The notes beneath the pieces were generated by a model that was given only the letters and a program-made list of their open reading frames with translations, did no database searches and was not told the DNA's origin. The translations under genes and the position numbers were made by a program. A stretch of 55,451 nucleotides of DNA, filler included, from Jimgerdemannia flammicorona (taxonomy: Eukaryota), in NCBI GenBank assembly GCA_003990765.1. It is 3 parts of 3 records of this genome, joined end to end, with 100 filler letters (N's around TTAATTAATTAA, not from the genome) between each part and the next. Parts side by side here need not be neighbours in the genome. Positions count along the whole stretch, not along the records: positions 37,039 to 55,451 come from RBNJ01002217.1; 2 more parts are not named here. One strand, given 5' to 3'. Below, piece after piece: positions 1,632 to 53,630 of the stretch; within the stretch, counting starts at the first letter, position 1, and every line of letters starts with the position of its first letter.

Positions 1632-3568
1632 TTACTGCACTATTTCCTCCTTATCCTCCACCGTATCCCAGAAAGTCAACCTCTGATCGTTAAGCTCATC
1701 GTCATCTGTCTCGTATCTCGTCACACCTCCTTCTTCAAACACCAACACCTTCCCTCCTTTGCCCGTAAACCTTTCCCACTTTACCGACGCTTCGCCCATG
1801 AGCGGCAGGCCGCTCGCCGCAAATGACATCCACGCCTCGACGATACGATCCGATGTCCTGCTCTCCGCCTCTGTCAGCTTCTCCCTCCGTTTAAACACGA
1901 ACGGCAGCTCGATCGCGTGATGGATACCGAGGTTGAGCCCGGAGGTTATCTCGAGCCCGGAGGTTACCTCGAGCAAGGAGTTGAAACGGTAGTAGTATAC
2001 CTTGCGACCAGTTGCCGCGAGCCGTCGCGCGGCATGCCGCACCGGGCCCGAATAGGCGCGGTCGCCATGGATGCGTGCAAGGGCGAGGATCTGGGTATCA
2101 TGGAAATCGGTGATCGGGTACAGCATCTCGAGCTTGCCTGCTATGGTCGGGAAGGCCTTCGCGAGGGTGTCGTGGTATGTCTCCGCGATCGGAATGCCAG
2201 TCACAAAGATCGTTCCCTCGTCTGTGTTGTTGCCGACGATGATCTCGAGCACGTTAGGGTCAACATCGCCCTCGTTCAGGAGCGTACGAATCTCCTTATG
2301 GATATTTACACCGTCTATGGTACCATGCCAGCGGATTTTGGGGTTGGAGTTCGATTCAATGCACGGGATGACCTCGATGAGCTTGTTGCTTGGGATACGA
2401 CGGAGCTGGGCCAGGCGGTTGGGTGGTTTGATACCAAGCTCGTCGCAGACGAGGTCGAAGGTGCGTTGTTGATCTGAAATCTTGGGAGTAGGTGTAGTGA
2501 GTTTGATGCCAGACTGGAGGATCGCGCGTTGGAAGAGGTTGCGTGAAATGAAGAGGTGAAGGAGGATCGAGAGAGAGCCGGCAGAATTGCCAAATGCTGT
2601 AATACGGGAGGCATCACCTCCAAAGAGGTGGATGTTTTCTTTCACCTAATGTCAGTAAAGCAAGTGTACGAGGAATTGCATTGATTAATTTTTGAGGAAT
2701 GTGGCTGCACAATACGTTCTCTGACTTACCCATTCAAACGCCAATTGCTGATCCAGGAATCCATAGTTTCCGGCGCTCAAATCTCCGGAATCTTCCGCGA
2801 GCTCATGGGACGCCAAAAATCCGAAAATATTAACACGGTAGTTGATCGTGACGAGAACGATGGGGTTGGAGTCGACTAAGTTTGATCCATCTGCAATTAT
2901 AGAATGCAATGAATATGAAGGCAAGAATTAGTGCGAGATAATATCAAACAATCGAGGCCACGACATTTCAATCAAACTATTTACCAAGAGCAGGTTTACA
3001 TCCGTTTCCATTCCTAAACCCTCCGCCAAAGACATAGACCATGACCGGCCAGCCTTCCTTGGGCAATGTCTGCATAGGTGGTGTCCAGACATTCAGGTTC
3101 AGGCAGTTGTCTTCATCGCCTACGGTCTCGGTATCAGCGAGGATAGCGTCGAGGCCATGGGATCCCTCGGGCTGTGGGCATTTGGGGCTAGACGTTGGAT
3201 GGACGATGTAGTTTTGAGTTAATTACGGATGTCGGAAGAAATCCATAGTCAACGACATTTCAAAGTTTGGATTATTTGTCAGTATACAAGTACCAGAATG
3301 GTTGTAATAATATATTCACCCAGGCTTTGTCGCATCCCTAACTTCCTCCCATTTTTGCTCCAACTTCTTGGGTGCTCTCCATCTGAGTTCTCCGATCGGA
3401 GCCTGTGGATATGTCAACGTTGGTCGGCCAGTTGATCACTTCACGACGAAAAGGAGTGTTACCATTACAACAAACCTGGGCATACGGGATATTGTAAAAT
3501 ACGCGATGTGTTGGGCGAACGGCACCACGGAGTGGGCCTAAGGGTAGAGTAATTTGAGCGTCAGACAT
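1632..3568 (-). CDS. Type-B carboxylesterase/lipase (COesterase family), multi-exon
   Basis: Spliced exons give IPYAQ-APIGELRWRAP, EDNCLNLNVWTP, VMVYVFGGGF, NYRVNIFGFL, GNYGFLDQQLAFEW, nucleophile GNSAG, NTDEG and GIHHAIEL (S-E-H triad). GT..AG introns (e.g. 3475-3403). No signal peptide evident. Confidence 0.93.
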
Positions 3569-3882
3569 GGCTTCGGTCGACAGGATAACAGGTTGAAGTG
3601 GCTGCGGTGCCCCTGTGTAAGGTAACGTGACCTAAAATAGGCTACTACTATTTCAGCTATTACTACCAGTCACAAGGTTTGGTAGGCAACCTTCTGAGTC
3701 TCTTTTCTACAACATATACCCCCTCTATCTCAGGTTGGTTTGCTGTACCTATTGCAGGGCAGTGGGAGGGAGGTAATGATGATGAGTTATCTCTTTATTA
3801 GTATTGGATTAGTGCTTTCTCTACTTTTTTACAATTTCTGGTATCTTTAACTACATCTGGAATATACTCATTTTGGTATAGT

Positions 3883-29440: not shown

Positions 29441-29614
29441 TATTAATAATATTAATAATATTTATATATATAATAATATTTACCTATAATCTCTTCTTTC
29501 AGTTTACTTTTTTGATATTTTAAACTTTGTAAGTACTGAGATCATTTAGATGGTCTTGGCATTTTGTTATAACTAAAAAATATAAATTTAATAATTTAGT
29601 AAGATCATCTAAAA

Positions 29615-30468
29615 GAGTGACAGGAGACGGGCAATAGGAGACAGGCGATGGGAGATGGGTGATGGAAGACGAGATGAGTGATAGGAGACAAGATGAGCAA
29701 TGGGAGATGAGATGAGTGATGGGAGATGAGATGAGTGATGGGAGACGAGATGAGCAATAGGAGACGAGACGAGCAATGAGAGATGAGACGAGCGATGAGA
29801 GATGAGATAGACAATGGGAGATGGGTGATGGAAGATGAGATGAGCAATGGGAGATGAGATGAGCAATGAGAGATGAGCTAAGTGATGGGAGATGAGATGA
29901 GTGATGGGAGATGAAACAAGTGATGGGAGACAAGACAGGTGATGGGAGACAAGATGCCAATGGGAGATGAGATAAGTGATGAAAGACAAAATGAGCGATG
30001 AGAGACGAAATGAGTGATGGGAGACAAGATAGGTGATGGGAGACAGGTGATGGAAGATAGGCATCTTGTCTCTCATCACCCGTCTTGTCTCCTATTGCTT
30101 GTTTCATCTCTCATTGCTTGTTTCGTCTTCCATCACTTGTCTTACCTTCTATTGGCATCTTGTCTCCCATCACCCATCTTGTCTCTCATTGCTCATTTCA
30201 TCTCCTATCGCTTGTCTCATCTCCCATCGCTCAGCTCGTCTCTCATCGCTCAGCTCGTCTCTCATCACTTATCTTGTCTCCTATTACTCGTCTCATCTTC
30301 TATTGCCCATCTCTCATTGCCTATCTCCCATCACCTATCTTGTCTCCTGTCTCCTATTGCTCATCTTATCTTCTATCGCCCATCTCCCATCGCCCATTGC
30401 CCATCTCCCATCACCCATCTCCCATCGCCCATCTCGTTTCCCATTGCTCATCTCGTCTCCCATCACTC
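29615..30468. repeat. Foldback palindrome of tandem ~19-bp units (GAGATGAGATGAGCGATGG-like)
   Basis: Purine-rich arm 29615-~30060 and pyrimidine-rich arm ~30061-30468. Variant units such as AAGATGCCAAT are mirrored in order. Confidence 0.9.
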
Positions 30469-32506
30469 ATCTCAGAAAAATATATATATTACATACTTTG
30501 GTTTTGTAAGATATCAAGAAAGATTGTTGACAATATTGACAGATGAACAATCTTATGGCTGAGTTAGAAATAAAATGTAGAGTCACACTGAGAATGAATT
30601 TAGCTCAGCAAAAGGCCGATCACAATTTTGGCCTTAAATGAAAGCCAACTTGAGAAAATAGACCTATCTATAGACCTGATCACAAAAACATTAATAACTC
30701 TATTAATATACATTCAATTTGAATGTACTTTAGCTTGTTGCATCCACATTTAATACAGGAATCTAGTACAATAAAGATAAATAAATTTGGAGATATATTC
30801 ATAAAGTTATTTATATTTATGTGAAATGTTTATTTTATTTAGATTTGGCATAATTTCAGCCTTAAATTAAGGCCGGTCACAATTTTGGCCTTAAAAAAGT
30901 ACTTAGTCTATTAGTCACAGTATCTCATAATTATATATAATTTAAATTTATATATTACTATAATTAGAAAAAAATTAAAAAAAAACTCTTCATAAAAGTA
31001 AAGTAGATAATATTTACTATTTATATTTCTAATAATAATATTTTTTAATATGACTAATATAGAGGAGAAAGGATTTAAAAAATATAAAAAAAATATAAAT
31101 ATAAGTAAAAAATCTATTTTTATTAATATATTATATATAGTAATTAAAAAAATATTCTTCATAGTTTTATACTTTATAGGATTTTTTATCAATTTATGAT
31201 TTTTATTATTTTTTTATTAAATATATCAAGAAAAAGTAGCAAAAAGAAGTAATAAAAATTTGAGCATAAGTTATGATTCAATTTTATTTTATGACTTCAA
31301 ATTTTTTTATTTTTAATTTGGCTTTGTAAAGTGCTTAAATTTAAGGCTGAAATTATGACTAGTCTTAATAAGTTACAATATCTATTATAAAATAGTGAAA
31401 AAAAAACTACTTTTATTAAAATATTATATGTAATAATAAAAAAAACTCTTCATTAGATTAAACTTGATAGGATGTTCTATTAATTTATAATTTTTATTTT
31501 TGTTTTATTAAGTATATTAAAAAGGAGTAGCAAAAAGGTTGAGTATAAGTACTGTGCACTATACACTTATGATCCTTACTATATATTCATTTCTGTATAT
31601 ACTCCTACCTTCATAGAATATCTTTTGAAAATATTATCAATCTGACTGATAAATATTAGAGTAATATTATCTTTTAAGTAATCTAATAAGTTTGATAAAT
31701 ATCTGAAGTTTAGTATAGAATTAAATAAGTAGAATCAGATAATAAAGAGAAAGTTATAATAGTTTATTATATAGTAATAAACTACTGGTATTTTTAACAG
31801 AATTTCTAAATATACATAGTGGTTATATACTATATATAGTATAACTATATATATATCCAGTATATCATATTTAGTTATAGCTTTAATTTATATAAATATA
31901 TATTCTCTATACTGAGTATATTGTAATCTCAGCTCTGCTTTCTCCTCTTAAGAATAAAGAAGTATTTTTATCAAAAACCTTCAAACTGACTTATTAGTAA
32001 TTCTGAGCCTAATCAATTTGAGATATAAGTATAGTATCTCTATCTAGTACAAAACTCCAAAAGTGATACTTAGACTATATATATCTTAATAACAAATATT
32101 TAGAACTTAGCACTTTTTTACAGAACTCAGAAACTAGAACTGATAGTCTATCTAGATTATTTATAATGTATTAATTCTATCAGTATTAGTTTTATTATAA
32201 TAAATAAATAAATATAAAAAACACATTTATTAAATTAATATATTTAATTAATTAAATATTAAAGAATATTAAAAATATTAAAAAATATAATATAAAATTC
32301 ATTTATTTTAAAATATTAAATTAATTAATTAATTAATTAATATAATTAAAACTAATATTGTTATTTTAAATATAATTATAATTTTTTTTTAGTAAAATTG
32401 TTATATTAATAAACTTAATCTAATTTAACTTTCTAATAAAAATATATTGAAAAATTATATATATTAAAATAATTCAATATACTATATACTATAAATATAA
32501 TATACT

Positions 32507-34820: not shown

Positions 34821-35181
34821 ATCCGCGCCCCGAACACGGCTATTAATTTTGCCATGTGGCACGGTTTATTTCAGGACGAACCTTTTTTGGTTTCAGTCCC
34901 ACTGAGGTCGTGCCAAGGCATATATATACAGATCCTAGTCTTCCAAACTGTAAATATGCTTCCTCGACTTATCTAATGTTGAAGAAAGCCCACACATTGG
35001 CCTGCTGCGCATAGTTTCGTGGTAGACAAGTCGACATTGAGCGATTTGGCGTGTCTCCCTTGAATTTATGTTCACCGGTAATGCGCGCGTCGCGAATGGT
35101 TTTGTCAGCATGAATTTGTCAGGATCGCCCTTCAAAGGTTAGCATGGCTGAATGTGACTGATACGCCTCTTACGAAGAACC

Positions 35182-36583
35182 ATGTCCGCCAAACAGCAAA
35201 TCTTCGGTTACGTCGGTCTCGGAAACATGGGCGGCGCCATGGTACGCAAACCCCAGACTGGCCATTACCTATTCGCAATGCTCCCTCCAAAACCCGCCCG
35301 CTGATCTATCTTTCCCACCTCTATATCAGGCGGCCAACCTCCAAAAACACCTGACCGCGACCGGCCAACCCCCCCTCGTGGTCTTCAACCGGTCGGCATC
35401 CCGCGCCGAACCGCTCCGCGCTCTTGGCGCCGTAGTAGCTGCCAGCCTGGCCGACGTGTCGCATCGCGCCGACGTTGTGTTCACCTGTCTCAGCAACGAC
35501 GCGGCCGTATTGGAGACGTACGAACAATTGCTCGAGGACACCGTCGAGGGAAAGGTGTTCCTTGAGCAAAGTACCGTGAGCTCGGATACTACGGCCAAGG
35601 TCGCAGAAATGGCGAGGAAAAAGGGTGCCACGCTGCTGGGTTCTCCGATCATGGGTAAGAATTTGGATAAAGGATTGTTTAGAGAATGCGAAATAAATCG
35701 ATCTTATTGATCTGACCACCGAAACACCTTTCTCGCACCAGGTCCTCCCGCCAGCGCTGTAAGCGCGCAGCTCGTTATCATCCTTGCCGGCGGCACGGTT
35801 GAGATTCGCGACCGCATCTCGCCTTACCTTGTGCCCATCTTGGGGCGGGCGTTGATCCCGCTCGGCAACGACGAGCGCGACGCCTCCAAGTTGAAGCTTA
35901 CGGGCAACTTCTTCATCTCGTCCATGGTTGAGATGCTGGCGGAGGGGCTGACGTTAGGAGAAGCAGCGGGTGAGCTGAATTTTTATTTATTGCTTTAATA
36001 TAATATATATTGGAACGATCAATACTGGGCGAAGTAAGTGCATACCCATTTCCGGTTTCCGATCTTGACCCATACGTAAATCCCACTAATCTCGCTCACG
36101 ACCCACCAGGCCTCGGTCAGCACAACGTGCAGAAGTTGATCAACGCCGTCTTCGCGGGCACGCCGCTGGTCCCGTACGCGGAACGCATGGTGTCCGAGTC
36201 GTACGACATCGACCTAGCTGCCGGCGAGCGGGCGCAGTTTTCCATCTCTGGTGCGAAGAAGGACGTGTCGCATATACTCAACCTGGCCAAGAAGTGAGTA
36301 ATCGTTTTGTTTGTCTTCTCGTTCAGATGTGTTGTGGGGCCCAGCGATCGCGATTGGTAGCACGATGCAGATCACGAATGAAAAGACATAGCTTGTTGAC
36401 TTCGTTCATCTTAATGCTTGCTCACAATCTCAACCCAGCCACGGCGCCAAACTCCCAATCTCAGAAGTGATATTCGAGCACCTACAGCAGGCTGGAGAGG
36501 AGAAGGGTGACATCGACTTCTCGGGCATTGTGGGCGTGCTGAGAAAGGATGCTGGGCTGCCATTCAATCTGAAGAAAAAGTGA
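35182..36583 (+). CDS. NAD(P)-dependent beta-hydroxyacid dehydrogenase (3-hydroxyisobutyrate/6-phosphogluconate dehydrogenase-like)
   Basis: Exons ~35182-35241, 35330-35654, 35742-35969, 36110-36293 and 36439-36583. Rossmann GYVGLGNMGGAM, VFNRS, EQSTVS, PIMGPP, catalytic KLTGN, and KDVSHIL. Confidence 0.93.
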
Positions 36584-38943: not shown

Positions 38944-41900
38944 ATGAACAACCGCCACTACCCAAACAACCATACAAACCAAGCCCCAATATTCAGACAA
39001 GATGGATATGAGACTACCAGTATTCTACAGATATACCTCAGACGAATCAATTATCACCTTTATTGATGATTTCGAGCAGTATGCTGCTGTAAGGACCCTG
39101 ACAGCAGCATAGCAAGTAGCCCTCATACCCTTCAGCCTATAAGGTCCTGCCAGAGCAGCATTCATAGCCACAACCCATGCAGGAAATGATGCTGATGCTA
39201 TATTAACAGCACAGAAGACCTGGCTCTGAAATACATATTATACAGATAAGATCAAGCAAGCCCTGAAGGATCAGCTCAATACAATATACCAAGGAATGAG
39301 CGAGGATCCAAACACATTCTATACCAGAATTTGATATCAGATAATTCTTACAGATTATGCTGCTGCTATCTGAGATCAAGTAGCCGAAGCAATCTTCATG
39401 AAAGGAGTCTATCCAGAGATAGTCATGGCCATCTGCTCATCACCAGTGACTCTGGATCTACCACAGAAGGTCACCTATGCTCAGTGATACTGGATAGCCA
39501 GATATCCACAAGACCATATAATGGAAAGAGTCATGGGAGTCAGAATCAAGACACCTAAGTCAACCAGTGTGATCCCCACCACAATGATCAATCGAAACAC
39601 ACCTCAGCCCAAAGCTACAGAGTAGCAAAAGAACAGTGACCCTATGGAGGAACTTGCCAAAAGGTTTGCCAAAATGACTGCCCATCTGGGAGATATGGTA
39701 AAAGAAATTTGAGGAAGAGACTGCCGCCCTGTTCAGAAGTTTGCTGCCACCTCAGATAAGAAGAAAGGTACCTGCTATAGCTGTGGAGAAGAAGGCCACT
39801 ACTCCTATGAATGTATGAGTGAAACCAAGTACAAGGCTCAACCAAGCAATGCTATATGAAATAAGGAGCAGGCCAATACAATTATCTTCGAGGAAATTGG
39901 AAATTCTGATGAAGAAGAATAGGAGGCCTATCCTGCTCAGACTACCAAGAAGGATGTTCACAAGGAACTCTACAAGAGACCACCAGAAAGACCCAAAAAG
40001 AACCCAGTAGAAAAGCAGATGGAAACGGCCACTGAAAGCCAAGCTGAAGAGATGGACCAAGATATGGAGCTGGAACAAGCAGTTCAAGATATCATCCAAG
40101 GAACCACTCCAGCCAGTGAAGGAGAAAAAGAAAAGAAGCTTTGCACGATCAAGACCTTCAAGTATGATATCTTCAAGGACCTCAGTCAATAAAAGGTCAA
40201 TGCAACCTTTGGTCAGCTCATAGAAATCCCAACATTCAGACAGTAAATGAGGTTTGGACTTACCAAAACAATTAAGGAATAAGAATGGAAGATAACTGAG
40301 GCCAATAACATTCAAGAGGACTCAGGAGAAGAAAGTAAGGACAATCACAAAACCTCTGCTTATGCAACATGCCAAATCGAAGATAGAATCTTTGAAACCA
40401 TTATTGATATGGGAGCAGGAGGATATCTCCTCAGCAAGAAGGCAGCAGACCACCTAGGTTGGAATATGGAAGAAGCAACTAAGCTAGTATTCATTACAGC
40501 TGATAGCACAAGAGCCACACCTCTGGGAAAGATCCGAGATGTTCCCATCAAGATTGGAGGAGCAACCATCTCAGTAAATGTAATTGTAACCAATGCCACC
40601 AACTATGACATTCTCATCAGCAATCAATGGCTTCACAAAGCCAAGGCAGTAATCGATCTCAATATCTAGAAGATGCAGATCACCTACTGGAGACAGAAGA
40701 TATGAATTCCCATCAATGTCAACAAAGGAGTCCTGCCTGACATAGAGGAAGAAGAGAGTGAGCAAGAAGAAGCTTATATAGTGACTACTTCAAAGAAGAA
40801 GAAAGTTGGATGGATAAGTAAAGAAGAATGGTGCAAGAAGATCACAGAAGGTTATGCCCCACAAGGAGTCTGTCCTCATGGGATCAAGATGTACTATATG
40901 GAGCATATTAATGATTGCTACCAGTGCACCATCAGAATCAAGAAGATCCACCAGGAAAGAAGGCAGAAAGCTCTCAAAAAACAGATCAGAGAAGAAGAGA
41001 AGGAGGAAGATAATGAACCACCAGCCCTTCTGGAGGACAGTAATGATGAAGAAGAAATCAAGGTCAAGATTCAAAAGATCCACCCTGATGCAGTCTTGCC
41101 AGAACACAAGTCAGAAAATACAGCCAGAATGGACATTGCTACAGTAGAAGAGACTGTACTGAAACCCCAGACAACCACCCTACTCACAACTGGACTGGAG
41201 ATAACTATTCCAAAGGATCATGTCAGGATTCTCAAGACAAGAAGCAGCCTGGCTAGAAGCGAAATCACAATCAAAGAAGGAGTCATCGATTCAGACTATA
41301 CTGGAGAAATTCTACTCATTGCTAGGAATCACAATCCTACAACCCTATTTTCAGTCAAGAAGAAGGACTGATTGGTACAAATGTTGATCTTTCTGATCCT
41401 ACAACTAAAGATTATAGAAGTTAAGAAGCTGGAGGAAACAAAAAGAGGAAAGAAAGGATTTGGATCCACAGGAAGAGGAGTATTTATCAGTACCAAGATT
41501 ACTGAACTTGAGCATAAGAAGGAGGAAAACACAAGCAAGCACAGCTACACCATCAGAAATGAATTTCCACTCAAGAAAGAACTCAAGAAAATACTCTATG
41601 AATTTGAAGATGTCCTTGCCACAGATTTCAAGAATATCAAAGGAAAGACCCCACACTACTATCATGAAGTAGATACTGGAAACACCAAACCAATTTATCA
41701 GAAGGCAAGACCTGTCCCGCCAGCCTACTGAGAATGGCTCAGAGAAGAAATCAAGCAGATGAAAGAAGCCAGCATCATTAAAGAATCCAGCAGCCCCTGG
41801 TCCTCACCTGTTGTACTAGTCCTGAAAAAGGGCAGCAAGCCTGGGGAATTTGCCCCAAGACTCTGTGTTGACTACAGAAAGCTCAACATGGTTACCAAAA

Positions 41901-44174
41901 AGAATCGCCAACCACTGCCCCTCATCAATGATATCCTCATAACACTGGGAGATAAAGCACAGTACTATAGCACTTTGGACTTATACTCAGGATTCCACCA
42001 AATCGGACTCACAGACATGGCAAGTGAAAAGTCAGCTTTCATCACCCCAGATGGAACCTACATCTACCTATGAATGCTATTTGGAATGTACAATGCACTA
42101 GTAAGTTTCCAGTGAATGATGAATAAAATCTTCTACTATGATATGGGAAGATAGATGATGGTCTATATTGATGATATAATCATCTACAGCCAGACACCAG
42201 AAGAACACCTGCAGCATATCCGGCAGATAATAAAAAGACTGAGAAAGTATGGCCTATACATTAAGCCCAAAAAATGTAAATTCACAGAAGTCGAGATCTC
42301 CTATCTCGGCCACTTCATTAATTGAGATGGAACACATATGGACCCCCTCAAGATATAAGCAGTGGTAGCATACCCAAGACCCACCACTGTTACAGAAGCC
42401 CAAGCCTTCATGGGACTTAGCTCCTATTATTGCAGATTTATTAGAGGATTTTCTAATATTGCAGGACCAATCTACGAACTTAACAAGAAGGATACCAAGT
42501 TCCAGTGGACTGGCAGACAACAAAAAGCATTTGATGAACTCAAGGTCAGACTGACCCAGGCACCCATCTTCAGAAGACCTGACTGGACTCAAGAATTCAT
42601 CCTACAGACTGATACAAGTGCACAAGGACTAGGAGCAGTTCTAGTTCAAAAGAAAGATAAAGTGGAGTATGTCATCGCATACCTCAGCTGCAGAACTCAA
42701 GGAGCTGAAAAAGAATATGAATCCTATAAGTTGGAATGCCTCACAGTCATCTGGGCTATAGAAAAGTTCCACTACTACTTGGCTGGAAGATACTTCACCA
42801 TCCAAATAGACTATTCAGCTCTTATCTGGCTACTGATAACTGGACAACCCAACTATGTCTGATGGATAATAAAGTTGCAAGCTTATGATGTAACCATTGT
42901 ACACTGCTCTGGAAGAACCAATGCCAATACAGATGCCCTCTCATGGACACCCCAAACTACCTCCAACCAATAAATCAATCATGAATAAGGAGCTCTACTA
43001 TGGAATTATCACATATCTGGGACAGCGAAAGATGCCCCAACATCTGGAAGAATGGATACAAATGATTATCAACAGAATATGGAAACAATTCGAAACTGAT
43101 GGAGAAATACTGAAGAAAGGAAAACTACTAGTTATATCAGAACACAAGAAGGAGCAAGCAATGAAATCAGTACATGAACTTGGCTATCTAGGAGGAATGA
43201 ATACATATGACAAGGCAAGAAGAATAATATGGTGGCCAGAGATGGAGGAAGATATCAGACAATTTGTCAAGACCTGCAACAAATACCAGAAACAGAAATA
43301 AGATCAATGAAATCAAGCCCCAGGATCAGCACACATAGAACTAGTACTATTTGCCCATATAGCAATGGATGTAATCGGCCCTCTACTCTTGACCCTGACT
43401 GGTAACCAATATATCATTGTCATTGTAGACCTTTTTACGAAGTAGATAGAAGCAGGACCCCTCAAGGAAGCCAATTCACAGTCAATCACTGATTTCTTCC
43501 ACAAGGAAATCATCTGCCGGTTCAAGACCCCAACACAAGTAACTACAGATAGAGGAACAGAATTTGTGAACCAGCTCTTTGAGGTTCTCTACAAGAAGTA
43601 CAAGATCCAGCACATTCAGACCATAGCCTATCACCCCCAAGGAAACAGACAAGTAGAAAGGACCAACAAAACCCTCAAGAACATTATTGCCAAGATCTGC
43701 AATAACTATGAGAACTGTGATCACTATCTGCTAATAGCATTATCCACTCTCTGGGATATCTGATCACAAAGTACCCACTTTACCCCTCGAGAAATACTGT
43801 TCGGAGAAGAATATTCTCAGGGAACCCTATCATCCAATGGAGATACTGTATGGAAACATGTGGATATGGAAATATAGAGACTATACCAAATAAGGAAGAA
43901 GGCTGAGGATTACATAACCAAAGTGCAGACACTATAACAGAGGAATGCAGAAAAGACCTACAAACTCTTGGAGATTATCAAGATAGGAGACAAGGTCCTA
44001 GTATATTGGAATATAGTAGAAGCTTCATGGTCTTGAAAACTGGAGCCCAAGTGGGAAGGACCTTACCTCATGCAAGATATAAAAGAGACCACTTTTTGGC
44101 TACAAAAACCCTTAGGCACAATAATCCCCACCACCATTCACTGAAACTGACTTAAGAAATATCATGGCCAGTAA
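38944..44174 (+). pseudogene. gag-protease-dUTPase-RT-RNaseH-integrase polyprotein, with stops
   Basis: CCHC CYSCGEEGHYSYEC (39773-39814); protease IIDMGAG; dUTPase RSSLA/GVIDSDYTGEI/RGKKGFGSTG (~41056-41475); RT RLCVDYRKLN, LDLYSGFHQI and YIDD; RNaseH LQTDTS; integrase TDRGTEF, YHPQGN and KWEGPY. Confidence 0.94.
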
Positions 44175-44667: not shown

Positions 44668-45116
44668 TGGTATAGCCAGATTCAGAAGAAGGAAATAGGG
44701 AACAGACACTTGATCGTACCCAGTCCCAAAGTAGTATAGCCACATAGTTAACAGTCCTCAATTTCGCCATTTGCTAAATATTTCACAAAGTGTAAGATCA
44801 AGCTTCTTGATATAGTATAGCATTTTGCAACTGGTGAAATATTTCGCAAAGTGTTAAATGACTCATAACTTAGCCATGTAACCCAGTAACCATCTCATAG
44901 CTAGCAAACTTGTATAAATAACCCAGTATCTTCGAGTGAATAACCTCAGATCGAAATAGTTCAAAGCAAAGAGATAGCAAAGGAACTAGTAAGCCTGTAG
45001 ACAGATACACTTCAAACTCACCCACCCTCCCCTGCAACTCAAAGGACTCTGAAGATCAAGTTTTCAAGATACAGAAATCCGATGTACTTTCAAGAGTAAG
45101 TGTCCACTACATTACA
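44663..45116 (+). repeat. 3' LTR
   Basis: Direct repeat of 38422-38887. Confidence 0.95.
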
Positions 45117-45187
45117 GTATATACTTATTTGTCCCAACAACACTATCAGTTCCTCCCCTTCCTGTCCACCCACTTCTTCCTCACTCC

Positions 45188-46441
45188 ATGAGCCCCTCCA
45201 ACTCACCTCCACTTCCTCCTTCCCCATGGCTACCGCCCGAGATTCTGCGTCCAATATTCACTTACATCGGTGGTCATCCTCACTCCCTGGACACACTCAT
45301 GGACCTAGTGGCCATCTCTATGGTCTGCGCCGAATGGTACAATATCGCGCGCCCAATGATCCCGAATAAGGATCTCCAAAATCCCTTCGGGCTATATACA
45401 AGCTTCGTCCTTCCTCGGCACTCTCAGACGGCTCGTCGCTCTCTTTTCAAATTCGCGCCAACTCATCCTTCCCGACTACTGTACTGAGCTCAAGCTCGAT
45501 CTCGCATACCATCGGTTGGAGGCGGAGGAGGACGCGATCATTTACGTTGATCTTTTGGGATCCGAGGAAAAATTCAACGTGGACTAAGAGTTTTTCGACG
45601 CCCTGTCCGCCGTCCTGCGGTTCGGTCCTGCGGTTCGCGACGCTGCAACGGGTCCACATCGTTGTTGTTCAGGGTTGCGAGTGGGTTTGCGACCTAATCC
45701 GATCTAATTGCAGCCGTACCTCGGAGTTGAAGATCGTTTTTCCGCGGGACGGCGTGCTGGTCAACCTTGGCCTGGCCGACCTGGTCCGAGAAATGCAGAC
45801 CTCCTTGATATCGATTGAGATTAACAACGAACCAGATGCAATGACCCGCCAATCCTTTTCAAGCTGTACAAACATCAAGACCGTATCAATAGGCGATTGT
45901 GAGTCCCGGGCCACCGCCGACATCCTGCGCTCAATGCAAGCTTCCGTTGGGAAGGCTGAGCGGATTCGGAATCGAAACCTAACTCACGGGGCTGTGCTCG
46001 GTCTGCGAAAACCTGGAACTTCTATCTCTCATCAGGCTTCCGACTGAGTCGCTAGAGGAGGAGTTCTCCTGACTCTCGAAGGCCTTGGAAACCCTTCGGT
46101 TCATACCGTTTGTGGAGGATGGTGTGCTGCGGGCCCTGGTGCGGTGCTGCCGGAACTTGCAGAAAATCGACCTGGATTTGGTCGACAGGGTTACGGGTGC
46201 TGGCGTTTGGGACGACGTGATGTCACCGTGGCCTACTTGAGTTTGATGCAGAGCGAGTCGTGCCGGAGTTCGTGTTGCCGATCATCGCGGTGTTAACATA
46301 CTGGAGGAATTGATTCTGACGGAGTTGTTGGACGACGATGTAAGTGTGGTGGAGGTTCTTGAACGCCACGAGTTTATCCAGGAAGATACCCTTGGAGCTC
46401 CCTGGATTCGTCTCAATTGTACTGGCGGGGCGAGGCCTTAA
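45188..46441 (+). pseudogene. F-box-like protein with LRR-like C-terminus, apparently frameshifted
   Basis: LPPEILRPIFTYI..DLVAISMVCAEWYNIARP is F-box-like. Downstream fragments (CTNIKTVSI, CRNLQKIDL) fall in different frames with no evident introns. Confidence 0.62.
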
Positions 46442-47457
46442 TCACTGACCTACCTGCACAATTTAATGAAATGTTTTGTTGCCACCATGTAAGATCGTCA
46501 TTATTAAAATCCACTTAGACTCAAATATTTGAATTTTTAATTTTGTTTTGTAAGGGGAAAAAGAAAAAAAAAAAAAAAAAAAAAAAAAATCTGTGAGAGC
46601 CGATGTCGAGAGTGCGAATTTTCAATATCGAATTTGACGCCCTTCACATCAGCGCTTTTACTGGGATTACGGTTGGGACGCAGTAAAACACTAAAAAAAA
46701 TAAGAGGTGAGACCGTATATGATCTAAGAACACACACATGCAAATATCTTTGTCAAGGAACAGTAAGCATGCCAAAGAGTATATACGCCGAGGCTAAATT
46801 TGTTGACAGCTATTCCTTCGACCTTCAAGAATGCCAAAAGGATCGACCCATCGCCGTCGAGGTCTTCCCTGACGAGGAATTGTTCAGGTCACTCTTTCCA
46901 AAGGTGAGTCCAGTTGCGCGCCGGCAGCTGCTGGATATTACGTCATCCCCGCAAATGCATGTACCACGGCGTGTTTAGTTAAAATACGACTGCATAATGG
47001 CTACTTTTGACATGGTGGGCACATACGAAGGGAGAGGGAGAAAGATACACCAATGTGTTTCATACGAGCTCTTGCACGAGATTACATGTCTTCGAATGCG
47101 TGGTATAGACGTCTGGGATGAGATGTCTGATGTCCCATACACACTCTCGTTTTCCTTCCCTAAATACATATGTAAGCGAACAACCGCCAAGATATAATGA
47201 CCACTTCGAAGGCCTGAGCTGATATTCAATACACAAACTCACAGAAACCTCACCAATATACACATATGACTGAAGCGAATTTATAAAGGCAAGTGAACTC
47301 CCTACATTCTACATGCAATGTTGGCGTAGACATATTCAAGCAAAAACGGGTTGCAAGACATAGCTAATAGTAATATTGTTAAATCAAACAGCGCGAATTA
47401 CTACTGATTTTGAACATGGAAGAAAATACAATTTTATACTATTGCCAAAAGCCCATC

Positions 47458-48694
47458 TCACATGCCACAGACGACTCGGCACTTCGAGATGACTCTGTAT
47501 TGACCATCCCAGCTGATATGTGCGCAGCCTGGAAACACGGTGAAAAGAATGAAAGGGCTCGAACCATTTGGCTGCCCTCGGAATCCCGGCACTGTTTCGA
47601 GGTCTAAGTAGATGGTTTCATCATGAGGAACAAAGGCAAGATTACGTTCATCTCCCATACGGTCGGAGCTTTCTGGAATGTCGATCCTGAACCGATTTTC
47701 ATCCGCGGACGACCAGAATGCCACGATGTCATTGTCGCCAATTACTGACATTTCAATGGTCACGTAGATGGCGGCATAAAGGAATTTCTCCAAATTTGAG
47801 CTCATAACGTTGCTTTCGATGGAATATTCCCTGGAATATTCTTCGATCTTCTTGAACTTGTAGTCGAGGATATTTTTCATGGGTTCCGGGAGATTAGAAA
47901 AGAATGAGGTCGCGGGTTCAGGGGTAAGCTTTTCAGGCGGAACAAGACGTTGCAACAGCTCCTTTGCGAATTCCTTCCTCGAGAGGGACTTATTTCCGAT
48001 TTCGTGAGCAAGCTGTCCCACCAAGTCGTAATTTTCGAGTTCGACGAATCCGTTTGTTTTGAGCATCGCTGAACGACAAATATTCATGATGATACAGGAT
48101 ACGTCTTGAACGATGGGGTAAGCTTGCAACCGTGGAGTTATCGTATCACGCTCCGGCACGCCGTGCACCAAACTATGATACTTGCATACCGCCTGCGAAT
48201 TACTTTGCCCCTGATTTTTCAAGGCTTGGACTAACACTTTGTGGAGGTTTATGTACATGGTACTCCAGTGTTCCTCGATGATCGACAGGTTGACTTCACC
48301 AAATTCATATGTTCCCATTGCGATGTTTGTTGACGGCAAGTCACCATTTCGGCGTCGAAGATCAATAATGACGCCTTCGTATTCTATCACCTTCTTCAGT
48401 ATATTATTCCTCTCCTCAATTATTGCGTTTATCTTGTTGTCGTGATTGTTCCTTCGGTTCTCTTCATCCTGAGGGTTTATTTCCTCGTTTCTTGCTCCTT
48501 TGGAAGCTGTAGCATTAAGGTAACAAACCGAATTGTCTCAATGTCATTTTAGATGCAAATGTAAAACCATATGTGTTTTCCCTACCTTTCTCACATAGTC
48601 TAAGAGTATAGGAAATTCCTTTCCCACACAAGTTAAGAGTATAGAAAATTCCTTTCTCATACAGGAAAAGTATGGTGCGTAGAAATCGGGTCAT
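47458..48694 (-). CDS. Hypothetical 385-aa protein (2 exons); C-terminus possibly a GrpE-like beta head
   Basis: Exons 48694-48586 and 48506-47458 splice in frame (1158 nt, GT..AG). Exon 1 has 33-bp tandem repeats. Helical middle region. C-terminus FILFTVFPG...RVISKCRVVC. Confidence 0.75.
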
Positions 48695-49202: not shown

Positions 49203-52200
49203 ATGAATCCACCCACGTTTGTGACTCCGCCAAGCCAGCAAGATCATGCCACAGAACTGCTGCATCCCGATACACGAATCGTTGCAGCTATCGACTTTGG
49301 CACAACGCATTCCGGCTTTGCCATGGTTAGCTTTCCACCGCCATATCTTCAACGCCTTTATGTCACGGTTTTGACTAACTTTTAGTTTGCTACATATTGC
49401 GTGCTTTGTATTTAGGCTCGCGTCAACTGGCCAGCCGAGGGTGTACAAATCTACGACAGGTGGCTCCACCAAGCTGGAAAATATCCCAAAAATCTCACCT
49501 GCATCCGCTATGATTCGAACGGTGACTGTATAAGCTGGGGCTACGAAGGTATATAGTCTTTGAGTGAAACCATACATTTTGATTTCTTTCTTGCGGCAGC
49601 CTGAGCTAATTCTCAATGAATCTGCATTCAAAGCTCGATATGGAAGTACTTCTCGAACTGGAGAGCGTTACGAAAGATTCAAGCTCCATCTTGCACGCAA
49701 CAACACATCAAATTTGCAGCTTCTGCCTGAACACCGAACTGCCGTTGAGATAATATCTGACTATCTTCGATCACTGCACAAGTTCTTTCTGGAGAATTAT
49801 CTGCAAAAAGTATATGGCAACATATATGAAAACAAAGACATCTTGTGGATATTGACAGTCCCCGCGATGTGGGAGGAAAGTGCCAAACAGCGTATGACCG
49901 ATGCTGCTGTTCAAGCAGGAATTGTAAGATTTTTAACTTACATCACTGATTTCTTATATGTCATGGCAAATGTTTGATTACATCAATGATGCGTTTTTTT
50001 TTAAAAAAAAAAAATTCATAGGTGTCTGCCCGAGAGGCCAAAGACAGGTCAAGGTTCAAAATCGTACTCGAGCCAGAGGCAGCTGCCATGACATGCTGCG
50101 AGCATTCCATCGAAAACAACTTGAAAGTCAATGACAATTTCATTGTCGTTGACGCAGGTGGAGGAACTGTTGATCTTGTATGTAGTAGGATTGTGGTAAT
50201 GGTTGATGAGTGTAGGTTTAATGGCTAATCGCTTCCATCCGTCCATCAGACCACATACCATATTACCAGAGATGCCTCGACTGGGCGTGAATCCCTTAGA
50301 GAGCTCTGCGACGGTATTGGCGGTTGCTGCGGGTCCACATATGTAGACGAGAATTTCTTTAAATTTTTGGAAACAAAATGCGGAGCCACAGTTGTTTCGC
50401 AATTTCGCGAGAAAAAACCTGGTGCCTGGTGCCAAAGCATTGTTCAGCCATGGGAGAATATAAAGGTGAGTAGAAAATCCATTCACAATGTACTAACACT
50501 AGTAACATTCGGCTTTTGGCTCACTCACTCAAATTGACATCTTTTTGAATAGAAACGGTTTAGCGATCTCACTTCAACAGATCAAGATATTGAAGCTCCT
50601 TCATCTCTAACCTATCTTATGACTACAGCTGAGAGAAGACGATTTGAACACCAGTCTGACGGAGCCATCAGGATCACTGTAAAAGACATGCTTGCGATAT
50701 TTGACCCTGTTGTTAACCAAGTGATTGACCTCATTGAGCAACAAATTGACCGTTGCGATATCAACCTCTCGGGAAGCAAAATTGATAAAATCGTCTTGGT
50801 CGGCGGTTTCGGAAACAGTGACTACTTGCACGCAACCATCGTGAATCGTTTTCCCAACATCCAAGTTACTCGGCCCAGAGAACCTGGAATGGCTGTCATG
50901 GCTGGTGCAGTCTTGTTAGGCTTAAATTCCAGGTTAGTATACCTTCAAGGATTGAAATACTCGCGCATCATTCGTTCCATCTTACCTTTTTTCTCCTTTT
51001 CTTTTATGCATAGTTATATTTCCGCCCGTTGCTCACGATATACATATGGCCTTAAAGTCTCCGGTCCATGGACACCAGAAAATCAGGCTAGTGACGGGGA
51101 AAAATATTGGAATGAAGTGAGTTTTGGATGGTGCTCTTTGATTATGTTACATAAAGTTGTCACTATGTTTGCTTATTGCTATGCTTTCAATATTTTTAGT
51201 GTGAAGGAATGGTCTATGCCAATAATCTGTTCCATACTATGGTTTCGAGGGGTCAGCAGTGTGAAGTTGGCGACGATGTGAGTGAAAGGTGACTATCACA
51301 AGTTATGTTTGTTTGCTTCACGATTACCCTTCAAGGCAGATCTAATTGGGCAACTCTTTCCAAAAAGATTCATTCCAACCGGGACGAACCAGACACATTC
51401 CTTTTTCGAATTTTTCCACACCGATCTGCCATCGGCGAAATACATTAGTTCAGCGACGAGAGCTGTAAATGCCCTAGTGCCTATCTTGGCTACCAATCAA
51501 GATGGAGCCTCACAAGCAGTGCACCGACGTATCCGAGTCAACATTGTTCAAGATTTGAGCGGAAGTATGAGTGGTGAGCCGATCAATGCTTGCAAGGCTG
51601 GAATCAAGAGTTTATGCAATGTGCTTAGGCCACAGGATGCCGTGGGTTTGATCGAGTTTGGGAGTTCGGTGACAGTACTCAGGTTCGTTATATTGCTGCT
51701 CAAGCCTTGTGTGGATGTTGTGGTTATCCGAACTGACTGAACTGCTCCCCAAACAGCAACATTTTCCGCAGTCCGATTTCAAGCGCTGAGCTCCCAGACC
51801 TTGTTGACGCGATGCAAACCTGCGGTTCAACAGTTCTGTATGACGCAATTCACAAGGGCATGACCACCTTGAAAGCAGCTGCGGAGCATGACAACGATCA
51901 CCACACGAAAAATGTTTTGATTGTGTACACGGATGGTAGAGAGAACATGTCGAGAACTTCGTTTTCTGTTCTCTCCACTTTTCTTCAAAGCCACCAGATT
52001 CCGAACTTTCGCTTATACTTCGCCAATGTGAATGGCATCCTCAACAACCCCCAGCTCATCAATCTTTGCAACACTAATCCCTGCAAGGAGTTCTGCAAAA
52101 TCATACCGGTGGAAGATTCCGGGGAATCTATCATGTCAGCATTCTCCAAGATTCGTCGGGACATACAGCTCTTCAGGACACAGAACCAGGATCTTTTGAG

Positions 52201-52312
52201 CAAGCATGTGGATCTGAAGATGGTCTTTTGCGAGTCAAAGATCAGGGCGGAAATGTACTGCGAATCGGCCGGCGAGACGCAAGATTGTGATCTCGAATTT
52301 TTCACCTTGTAA
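49203..52312 (+). CDS. HSPA12-like atypical Hsp70 with an inserted VWA domain (~10 exons)
   Basis: [72 protein letters not shown] and [28 protein letters not shown] and YTDG. Exon phases are consistent by hand; one acceptor near 51335 is uncertain. Confidence 0.88.
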
Positions 52313-52695: not shown

Positions 52696-53630
52696 TCAAG
52701 ATCCTTTTAAGGTTCGCCGTAAGTCCCATGCCATCTCTCCAGCGATTTGCTTCTCACGGACGTAGTCAATGAGGTCTTGGCACACAGGACAGGCGAGATT
52801 GTAGCCGTTCTTGTGGAAAAACGAGGGAAGGCGTGTTCTGCGGTTAGTTCTTTTTTTTTCGGATTTTTTTTTTTTTTTTTTTTTTTTTGGTATATACCTC
52901 ATACCAAAACGTGGCCATCTGGGATTGACGGTGCAGACACACCTCTTTGCCTTCTTTTCGTTCTCCTCAAAAGTCTTTTACATGTTGCTGCCACACTTCT
53001 GAAAAGCATTCTTGATCTTTTCAGATTAGATAATTTTATTTATTTAGCTCGTTGTATATATATGAGCAAGCCTGTACAAAATCCAAGAGAAGCATGATAA
53101 AGGAAGGATGCAGGGTTGAGCATCATACTTGCATCTACTCATCGCCCTACAAGAAAGCGAAAAGCGACTTACAAATTTGTTACCTTAAAACTAACACACT
53201 ATTTGCAACCAACCGTTTGAAACCAAACCGGGGAAAATATTTACTTTAGCGGCTTGCTGCCTTGCGGAATCCTTGGCTGAGTGAGGATGTTCATTTCTTC
53301 CTTGAGGGTCAGTTGTCTGATCCGAATATCCATGCTTAATTAATTTATTATACATATTTGAGGACCTTTGCGAAGATGGTTGCGACCTCGTCTCCGATAC
53401 TGTTGTCGTGCAGAGCTAATGAGATGAGAATTTTGTTGGGGTTGAGGACCTTTGCCAAGGCGTTTGCGCCCTCATCTCCGGTGTTATTATTGTGCCGATC
53501 TAATGAGGTAAGGGTTTTGTTGGTTTACGACGGCGTTTGCGCCCTCATCTCCGATATTATTGTAGTGCATATCTCATCGATACTATTGCTGCCCAGATCT
53601 AATAGACGAGAATTTTGTTGTACGGTTTGA
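52696..53630 (-). pseudogene. RNI/NLRC3-like leucine-rich-repeat gene fragment
   Basis: LDLGSNSI, NKTLTSLD.HNNNTGDEGANALAKVL and NKILISLALHDNSIGDE (53358-53630), with broken frames. Possible further exon relics to 52696. Confidence 0.65.

Follow-up and report, generated by a model that had tools for sequence, protein, structure and literature searches.

VWA domains inserted into beta-rich hosts are familiar from integrin alpha-I, ITIH1, Sec23/24 and pilus adhesins, and in integrins the affinity of the metal ion-dependent adhesion site (MIDAS) is tuned through the last helix of the I domain. The protein described here shares the VWA fold with these examples and differs from them in its host, which would be the client-binding domain of an intracellular ATPase. 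Its closest described relatives are Hsp70 proteins of the HSPA12 type, i.e., animal HSPA12A/B and fungal and bacterial proteins named "Hsp70 family / actin-like ATPase domain" (in many cases carrying Pfam PF27033, DUF8340), with which it has in common the same motifs of a divergent nucleotide-binding domain (NBD) as well as a lidless C-terminal beta domain with the same three end strands. HSPA12 lacks a lid and its function is called unknown in a 2026 review (PMC13580251), no resemblance between the C-terminus of HSPA12 and the substrate-binding domain (SBD) of Hsp70 was seen in an older survey (PMC2266713), and nucleotide-dependent client binding is reported for human HSPA12A only, in the form of ADP/ATP-dependent binding to acidic clusters of one client (PMC6345817). 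The gene under study lies at positions 49203 to 52312 of a 55,451-nt window, i.e., the whole stretch of DNA analyzed, which joins three parts of the Jimgerdemannia flammicorona assembly GCA_003990765.1. It encodes an HSPA12-type Hsp70 with a complete VWA domain nested in a loop of its beta domain.

The region represents a single gene with 10 exons that encodes 786 amino acids (aa), contains no internal stops and has nine GT-AG introns of 72-98 nt. Its features are as follows.

49203-52312, plus strand: whole gene, HSPA12-type Hsp70 with nested VWA (gene model, spliced contigs, public protein P0035)
49203-49325, 49416-49548, 49634-49923, 50022-50177 and 50250-50465, plus strand: exons 1-5
50553-50932, 51014-51116, 51200-51288, 51368-51682 and 51757-52312, plus strand: exons 6-10
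49272-50924, plus strand: actin-like NBD, residues ~24-430 (exons 1-6), VGGF motif intact (motifs, P0019 model, profile)
51014-51488, plus strand: SBD-beta-like domain, part 1, residues ~433-537 (exons 7, 8 and the beginning of 9), as far as the strand aligned with DnaK beta5 (alignment A7, weak DnaK 408-505 profile alignment, model strands)
51528-52165, plus strand: inserted VWA domain, residues ~551-738, interrupted by intron 9 at 51683-51756 (Pfam on exons and relatives; P0003 model versus ITIH1)
51552-51566, plus strand: MIDAS DxSxS motif with D559, S561 and S563 (sequence; 12 of 12 full-length rows)
51830-51832, plus strand: MIDAS threonine T627 (sequence; full-length rows)
51932-51934, plus strand: MIDAS aspartate D661 (sequence; full-length rows)
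52205-52312, plus strand: post-VWA tail with the final three beta-domain strands, followed by the stop without an alpha-helical lid (alignment, models, tail profile)

The initial annotation of this DNA had proposed one gene for an HSPA12-like Hsp70 with a VWA domain inside its C-terminal beta domain. The motifs that it named are all present, in the order given there, in the 786-aa model (IDFGTT at residue 30, EPEAAA at 199, DAGGGTVD at 226, VGGFG at 389, RYTYG at 441, FHTMV at 478, EFFHTD at 511, DLSGSMS at 559, T627, TDG at 660, VDLKMVF at 753 and DLEF at 780), and the assumption of a single transcript agrees with one intron-free contig covering exons 1-10 in each of two sequencing runs, X1 (2394 nt) and X2 (2376 nt), whose RNA status is guessed, since no run is recorded as RNA. 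Eight introns are visible as GT..AG joints in the X1 contig, and the absence of intron 3 follows from continuous record numbering. The public protein P0035 of the same species (800 aa, "VWFA domain-containing protein") differs from our model by 14 additional residues where exons 1 and 2 meet, and the contigs back the 786-aa version of this junction. Neither a signal nor a transmembrane stretch was detected in the 786-aa protein (best 19-residue hydropathy, 1.44), and a cytosolic location is presumed from its sequence. One public annotation divides an allele of the gene into two proteins, P0020 (621 aa) and P0004 (63 aa), as would be expected for two separate genes or for a VWA domain that is merely appended and followed by an unrelated tail. 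This division is, however, due to deletions in that allele; single spliced contigs span the gene, the annotations of P0019 (a relative from Endogone) and P0035 each describe one protein, homology links the tail with the end of HSPA12, and a beta strand and the start of the VWA domain share one exon and one reading frame. An explanation by separate genes or an appended domain is accordingly extremely improbable.

Phosphate-1, EPEAAA, phosphate-2 and VGGF motifs are all found in the NBD, the model of P0019 matches the NBD of Hsp110 (Z 28.6, root mean square deviation [rmsd] 3.2, 323 residues aligned), and the family profile recognizes the NBD of DnaK (E value, 7.5e-21). The closest relatives by sequence (named matches) and by structure are HSPA12-like and not DnaK-like, with template modeling (TM) scores in the ESM Atlas structure comparison of 0.67-0.80 for HSPA12-like rows, compared with 0.56 for one that is DnaK-like; the trees included no human HSPA12 sequence. 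NCBIfam DnaK scores amounted to 22.5-33.7 bits versus a family cut-off of 822.55 bits, and the canonical DVLLLD-type linker (motif according to PMC13580251) is missing from the 786-aa sequence. By the features tested, the protein belongs to the HSPA12-type Hsp70s rather than to canonical DnaK, in line with the ATPase assignment of the initial annotation. Canonical Hsp70 (DnaK, BiP) and Hsp110 resemble the focal family in the NBD fold and an SBD-beta-like sandwich, but the focal family lacks the lid and the canonical linker of DnaK and BiP. Long beta-basket insertions are also present in Hsp110 (PMC13580251); the focal insert is a folded domain and not an acidic loop.

The MIDAS is defined by a DxSxS motif, a threonine and an aspartate (PMC11090510), and the five corresponding residues are intact in the insert. 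Single exons of the focal gene score under the Pfam cut-offs (VWA_2, 23.1 versus 27 bits), but the full-length relative P0019 passes Pfam VWA with 46.6 bits (cut-off, 23.8; residues 552-717), as do P0003 and P0005. Structural comparison of the P0003 model with the ITIH1 VWA domain yielded Z 21.8 and rmsd 2.6 over 187 aligned residues, and the VWA part of the models matched solved VWA structures with Z 21.8-22.6, i.e., a Rossmann-like VWA fold. By the features tested, the insert is thus a true VWA domain, for which metal binding is predicted.

The location of the insert was assessed by comparison with VWA-free relatives, i.e., 32 bacterial loci, the HSPA12-like fragment P0031 and one paralog from the same genome. 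The VWA domain appears in alignment A7 as one clean gap across 24 VWA-free rows, in all of which the respective loop comprises 7-14 residues, in contrast to 199-214 residues, i.e., the ~200-residue VWA domain, in three full VWA-bearing rows. A tail profile, for which circularity was avoided by using exclusively the C-terminal 60 residues of VWA-free proteins from bacteria (22 in number), scored 13.7 bits on the whole focal protein and 21.2 bits on its last 50 residues, a value that none of 200 shuffles reached, and it also recognized the tail in 15 of 15 proteins tested. Since the model of P0003 failed to resolve the tail, a deeper alignment was folded (P0019). In the resulting AlphaFold model (predicted local distance difference test [pLDDT] 85.5, predicted TM score 0.77), the last VWA helix is followed by three tail strands (746-752, 756-763 and 769-775; pLDDT 82-87 over residues 741-770 and 71 over 771-780), and there is no lid. 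An ESM Atlas model of P0019 superposes from residue 15 to 780 on a VWA-free relative of 592 aa (530 aligned; TM score of 0.80 for that row), and the P0019 model finds its best structural match in ATP-bound BiP (residues 16-775 against 24-526 of the BiP chain; Z 31.1, rmsd 5.7, 431 aligned); the comparison with Sse1 gave Z 28.4 and rmsd 4.3 over 429 residues. Alignment, tail profile and models support an insertion of the VWA domain into the beta domain rather than an addition to its end, as initially annotated, and the post-VWA tail corresponds to the final HSPA12-type strands that had been suspected there; a tail outside the sandwich was not seen.

The profile of the VWA-free relatives aligns in a weak second stretch (positions 474-578) with DnaK 408-505 and thereby places the insertion loop on DnaK ~461-471, which we take to be loop L5,6, an outer loop of the peptide cleft. 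The insertion site is hence probably the equivalent of L5,6, and the VWA domain would be located on the cleft rim of a lidless protein. L5,6 has been named among the loops that reinforce substrate binding (PMC6843406). Inserts of other types were found at this site neither among the relatives examined nor in six HSPA12-like subfamilies of the same genome (G000) with aligned tail, and none of the 32 bacterial HSPA12-like loci had a VWA match in the Hsp70 frame.

The focal gene belongs to a paralog family. The VWA exon (exon 10) has at least 19 matches in genome G000, and all 14 other loci returned for it have the beta segment and the start of the VWA domain upstream. Introns after residues 234, 432, 496 and 601 are conserved in place and phase in ten full-length paralog models, and the full-length rows, 12 in number, all retain the five MIDAS residues and the ATP-site motifs (in one of them EPEAAA reads EAEAAA), at an average VWA identity of 51% and a minimum of 31%. 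The ratio of nonsynonymous to synonymous substitutions (dN/dS) in three paralog groups was 0.32-0.51 for the VWA domain and thus close to that of the NBD (0.29-0.45); even as rough values, with codons mapped via pairwise alignments, these ratios show purifying selection on the VWA domain at the sequence level. The nested layout is common to Jimgerdemannia and Endogone (P0019), and since the named relatives originate from these two genera, the lineage is that of the Endogonales, in which the VWA domain may have been gained once. Outside the Endogonales, the closest relatives of the VWA domain are short proteins with a stand-alone VWA (P0008-P0010, P0012-P0015 and P0017), one of them from a protist transcriptome set, and they are a possible donor family of the insert. 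D/E-rich low-complexity inserts are present in NBD lobe II, i.e., in exon 6, of many paralogs (e.g., L045:3126-3560 and L043:2935-3381), and the focal gene has none.

A close paralog, L053 (G000:C301; exon 3475-3735, minus strand), cleanly lacks the VWA domain and its intron, has a continuous beta domain and agrees in 8 of 8 upstream introns. In the phylogeny it is placed within the VWA-bearing genes (support of 95/97 and 95/96; the first tree was a quick one), and this position suggests that the domain was lost secondarily. A tree that forces the VWA-bearing genes into one clade without L053 is not rejected (approximately unbiased test, p-AU 0.06), which keeps the loss unproven, although it is the likely explanation of the phylogeny. 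Other copies are broken: L044a has a frameshift, L048 contains a VWA relic with stops, and the ATP-site motifs of L035 are degenerate. In addition, the last MIDAS aspartate is replaced by asparagine at the partial locus L014. Broken paralogs and alleles, the VWA-free paralog and the change in L014 might be taken for the decay of a family in which a tolerated, near-neutral insertion was spread by duplications, but the retention of the five MIDAS residues despite the low VWA identity, the dN/dS values and the presence of the same layout in Endogone make such a scenario very unlikely.

Upstream of the Hsp70 gene, a second gene is located in divergent orientation.

47458-48694, minus strand: partner gene encoding a coiled coil, a helical region and, at the C-terminus, a TVFPG motif (main exon at 47458-48506; inferred first exon at 48586-48694, without spliced-contig confirmation)

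The two start codons are 508 bp apart, and a short internal repeat is present in the inferred first exon. Upstream DNA of at least ~2.5 kb is available for 13 loci, and a homolog of the partner gene is arranged head-to-head with the Hsp70 gene at 11 of them, three being broken or fragmentary. One partner used as query identified 11 places, each on a contig that also holds a family member. The partner genes at L045 and L060 are broken. Two open-frame partner genes (L128:1060-3000 and L048:1990-3906 on G000:C2523) have no adjacent intact Hsp70 start, one of them being close to the VWA relic with stops. Distances of partners and NBDs are correlated (Spearman 0.73; 0 of 5040 permutations), as expected from joint duplication, and identities range from 17 to 77% for partners versus 40 to 74% for ATPase domains. 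Of the 32 bacterial HSPA12-like loci, 27 are followed by a gene whose C-terminal motif is related, and 15 of these neighbors were used to build the bacterial partner profile. This bacterial family matches GrpE with an hhalign probability of 88.8%, and weak Pfam matches to MIEAP (PF16026) and GrpE (PF01025) were obtained for 4 of 15 members each. The gene pair is thus reminiscent of DnaK-GrpE, in which an Hsp70 gene is linked to that of a coiled-coil protein, but the fungal partner is too diverged for an assignment. Applied to the fungal partners, the bacterial profile gave non-significant scores only (best E value, 1.9), and no significant match of the partner profile to solved structures was found. 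A complex prediction for the NBD (P0020 residues 20-432) and the partner, made without alignments, returned scores of 0.02, 0.57 and 0.02 and was not used as evidence. Judged from gene order and the bacterial neighbors, it is plausible that the fungal partner is a highly diverged nucleotide-exchange factor of GrpE type. Several cyanobacterial and gammaproteobacterial loci among L061-L091 have a recurring upstream gene, in some cases starting with a Cys-rich motif.

In our preferred reading, which we consider evenly balanced between right and wrong, the protein would act as an ATP-gated capture-and-release adaptor that uses the VWA domain to choose its targets. By way of Mg or Mn, the MIDAS would engage an acidic residue on a specific target, and this grip might supply the specificity and hold that a missing lid cannot provide. 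The nucleotide state is predicted to shift the beta-sandwich, and because the last VWA helix passes via a short linker into the next beta strand, sandwich movement could tune MIDAS affinity, in analogy to integrin I domains. The coiled-coil partner would reset the nucleotide as a dedicated GrpE-type factor, and paralogs would differ in their targets. The nucleotide-dependent client binding described for HSPA12A (PMC6345817) fits such an adaptor. The initial annotation had likewise considered that a metal-dependent recognition of targets might be linked to the ATPase.

Several results count against this reading. Neither transcript contig of the focal gene has an intact reading frame: in X1, two deletions in exon 10, of 31 nt and 11 nt, lead to a stop at 51861, and X2 has a net frameshift starting in exon 6. 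Frame-breaking indels of X1, X2 and P0020 are located at 51783-51813, 51865-51875, 50653 and 51051, those of the contigs being taken from table rows and not from contig letters, while the presented genomic copy is intact. The changes of X1 match P0020, so the two are possibly not independent. The folded proteins are the relatives P0019 (291 of 739 residues identical) and P0003 and not the 786-aa protein itself, the fragment model of P0003 leaves the tail at pLDDT 49-62, the BiP superposition with its rmsd of 5.7 yields end points and no strand pairings, and the alignment with the DnaK beta domain scores just 3.7 bits. L053 retains an intact frame and a partner without the VWA domain, and the insert is therefore dispensable in at least one family member. 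With respect to the partner, none was found upstream at L044b and L052b (2 of the 13 testable loci), hhalign of the fungal partner gave just 2% with GrpE (on the expected motif) and 30.6% with the bacterial partner family, and a Pfam GrpE match was found in 0 of 10 fungal members.

An alternative function is conceivable in non-self surveillance, with the VWA domain built in to sense ligands that are foreign or allelic, and with the Hsp70 and its partner as a two-gene switch that triggers defense or incompatibility. The numerous VWA exons, the tandem and paired copies, the broken paralogs (L044a, L048 and L035), partners and focal alleles, and the faster divergence of partners relative to ATPase domains would be in agreement with this role, and bacterial conflict systems have been predicted in which genes for HSP70 and GrpE are found (PMC7159879). 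The proportion of nonsynonymous differences (pN) in the three MIDAS-face loops of the largest paralog group, one of whose 8 rows is frameshifted, was 0.228 against 0.094 elsewhere in the VWA domain, an excess reached by 0 of 10000 random column sets. However, the ratio to the synonymous proportion (pN/pS) was 0.77 and not above 1, and a second paralog group (4 rows) was without effect (0.061 versus 0.057; 4156 of 10000 random sets). The control consisted of random columns and not of other surface loops, and the variation provides a hint only, because the region was chosen after per-site variation had been seen and loops vary more than cores. No effector domain was recognized, and PADLOC returned a weak NBD match alone (E value, 4e-4). 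A surveillance function is hence doubtful, albeit the most serious competitor of the adaptor. Equally tentative is its elaboration into a two-gene machine of bacterial-type layout, in which an HSPA12-type ATPase and a GrpE-derived factor would be combined with the nested integrin-like VWA domain as a sensor open to swapping and diversification, the ATP cycle would switch the affinity of the MIDAS by allostery, and birth-and-death evolution would resemble that of immune receptors in a plant-associated fungus.

The VWA domain might instead act inside the machine and not read outside targets, either as a substitute for the lid or by offering a docking site to the partner or to the acidic loop in NBD lobe II of many paralogs. 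Its predicted position on the cleft rim of a lidless protein and the D/E-rich exon 6 inserts would suit such a role. Yet the focal gene has kept its MIDAS without an acidic insert, and VWA-free relatives are paired with the same kind of partner, which renders a purely internal function improbable compared with the adaptor.

Other combinations of Hsp70 and VWA domains exist in bacteria, where seven ESM Atlas clusters (676-751 aa, 56-270 members) have both Pfam families on one chain. Compared with the focal family by features, they obtained feature scores of 0.91-0.93 with just 130-141 of 256 features shared, for which reason they probably do not represent the same family. No fusion gene was found among 30 loci read from 301 Actinomycetota genomes and plasmids; the VWA matches listed there are unrelated proteins. 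Four unpublished genomes flagged in this search underlie none of the statements made here. Word-based protein searches with exon 10, and with P0003 for longer proteins, gave no match, and a metagenome scan with the exon-9 alignment confirmed 0 of 59 pattern matches. A literature search retrieved no description of a folded domain nested in the client-binding sandwich of an Hsp70; supplements of large architecture surveys, e.g., of PMC7159879, could list such fusions.

Structure comparison puts the C-terminal domain of the HSPA12 type on the SBD-beta of Hsp70 and a VWA domain of known chemistry probably on the rim of the cleft. The family thus offers a handle on the function of HSPA12 and on the relation of its C-terminus to the SBD. 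The VWA-free paralog, paralogs with differing MIDAS-face loops and broken alleles represent natural controls, and target capture is accessible to a direct test through MIDAS mutants with and without ATP. The significance is limited by the narrow lineage and by a function deduced from sequences and models.

Further features were recognized in the window.

29520-30562: low-complexity repeated sequence with long open frames on both strands
35162-35710, plus strand: exon of an NAD-binding dehydrogenase (PF03446; E value, 2.4e-17)
~40283-43301, plus strand: broken pol region of a long terminal repeat retrotransposon, with a dUTPase (E value, 1.9e-13) before reverse transcriptase and RNase H pieces
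45053-46978, plus strand: F-box-like gene with a weak leucine-rich-repeat signal
~53340-53630, minus strand: short, apparently broken RNI-like leucine-rich-repeat fragments
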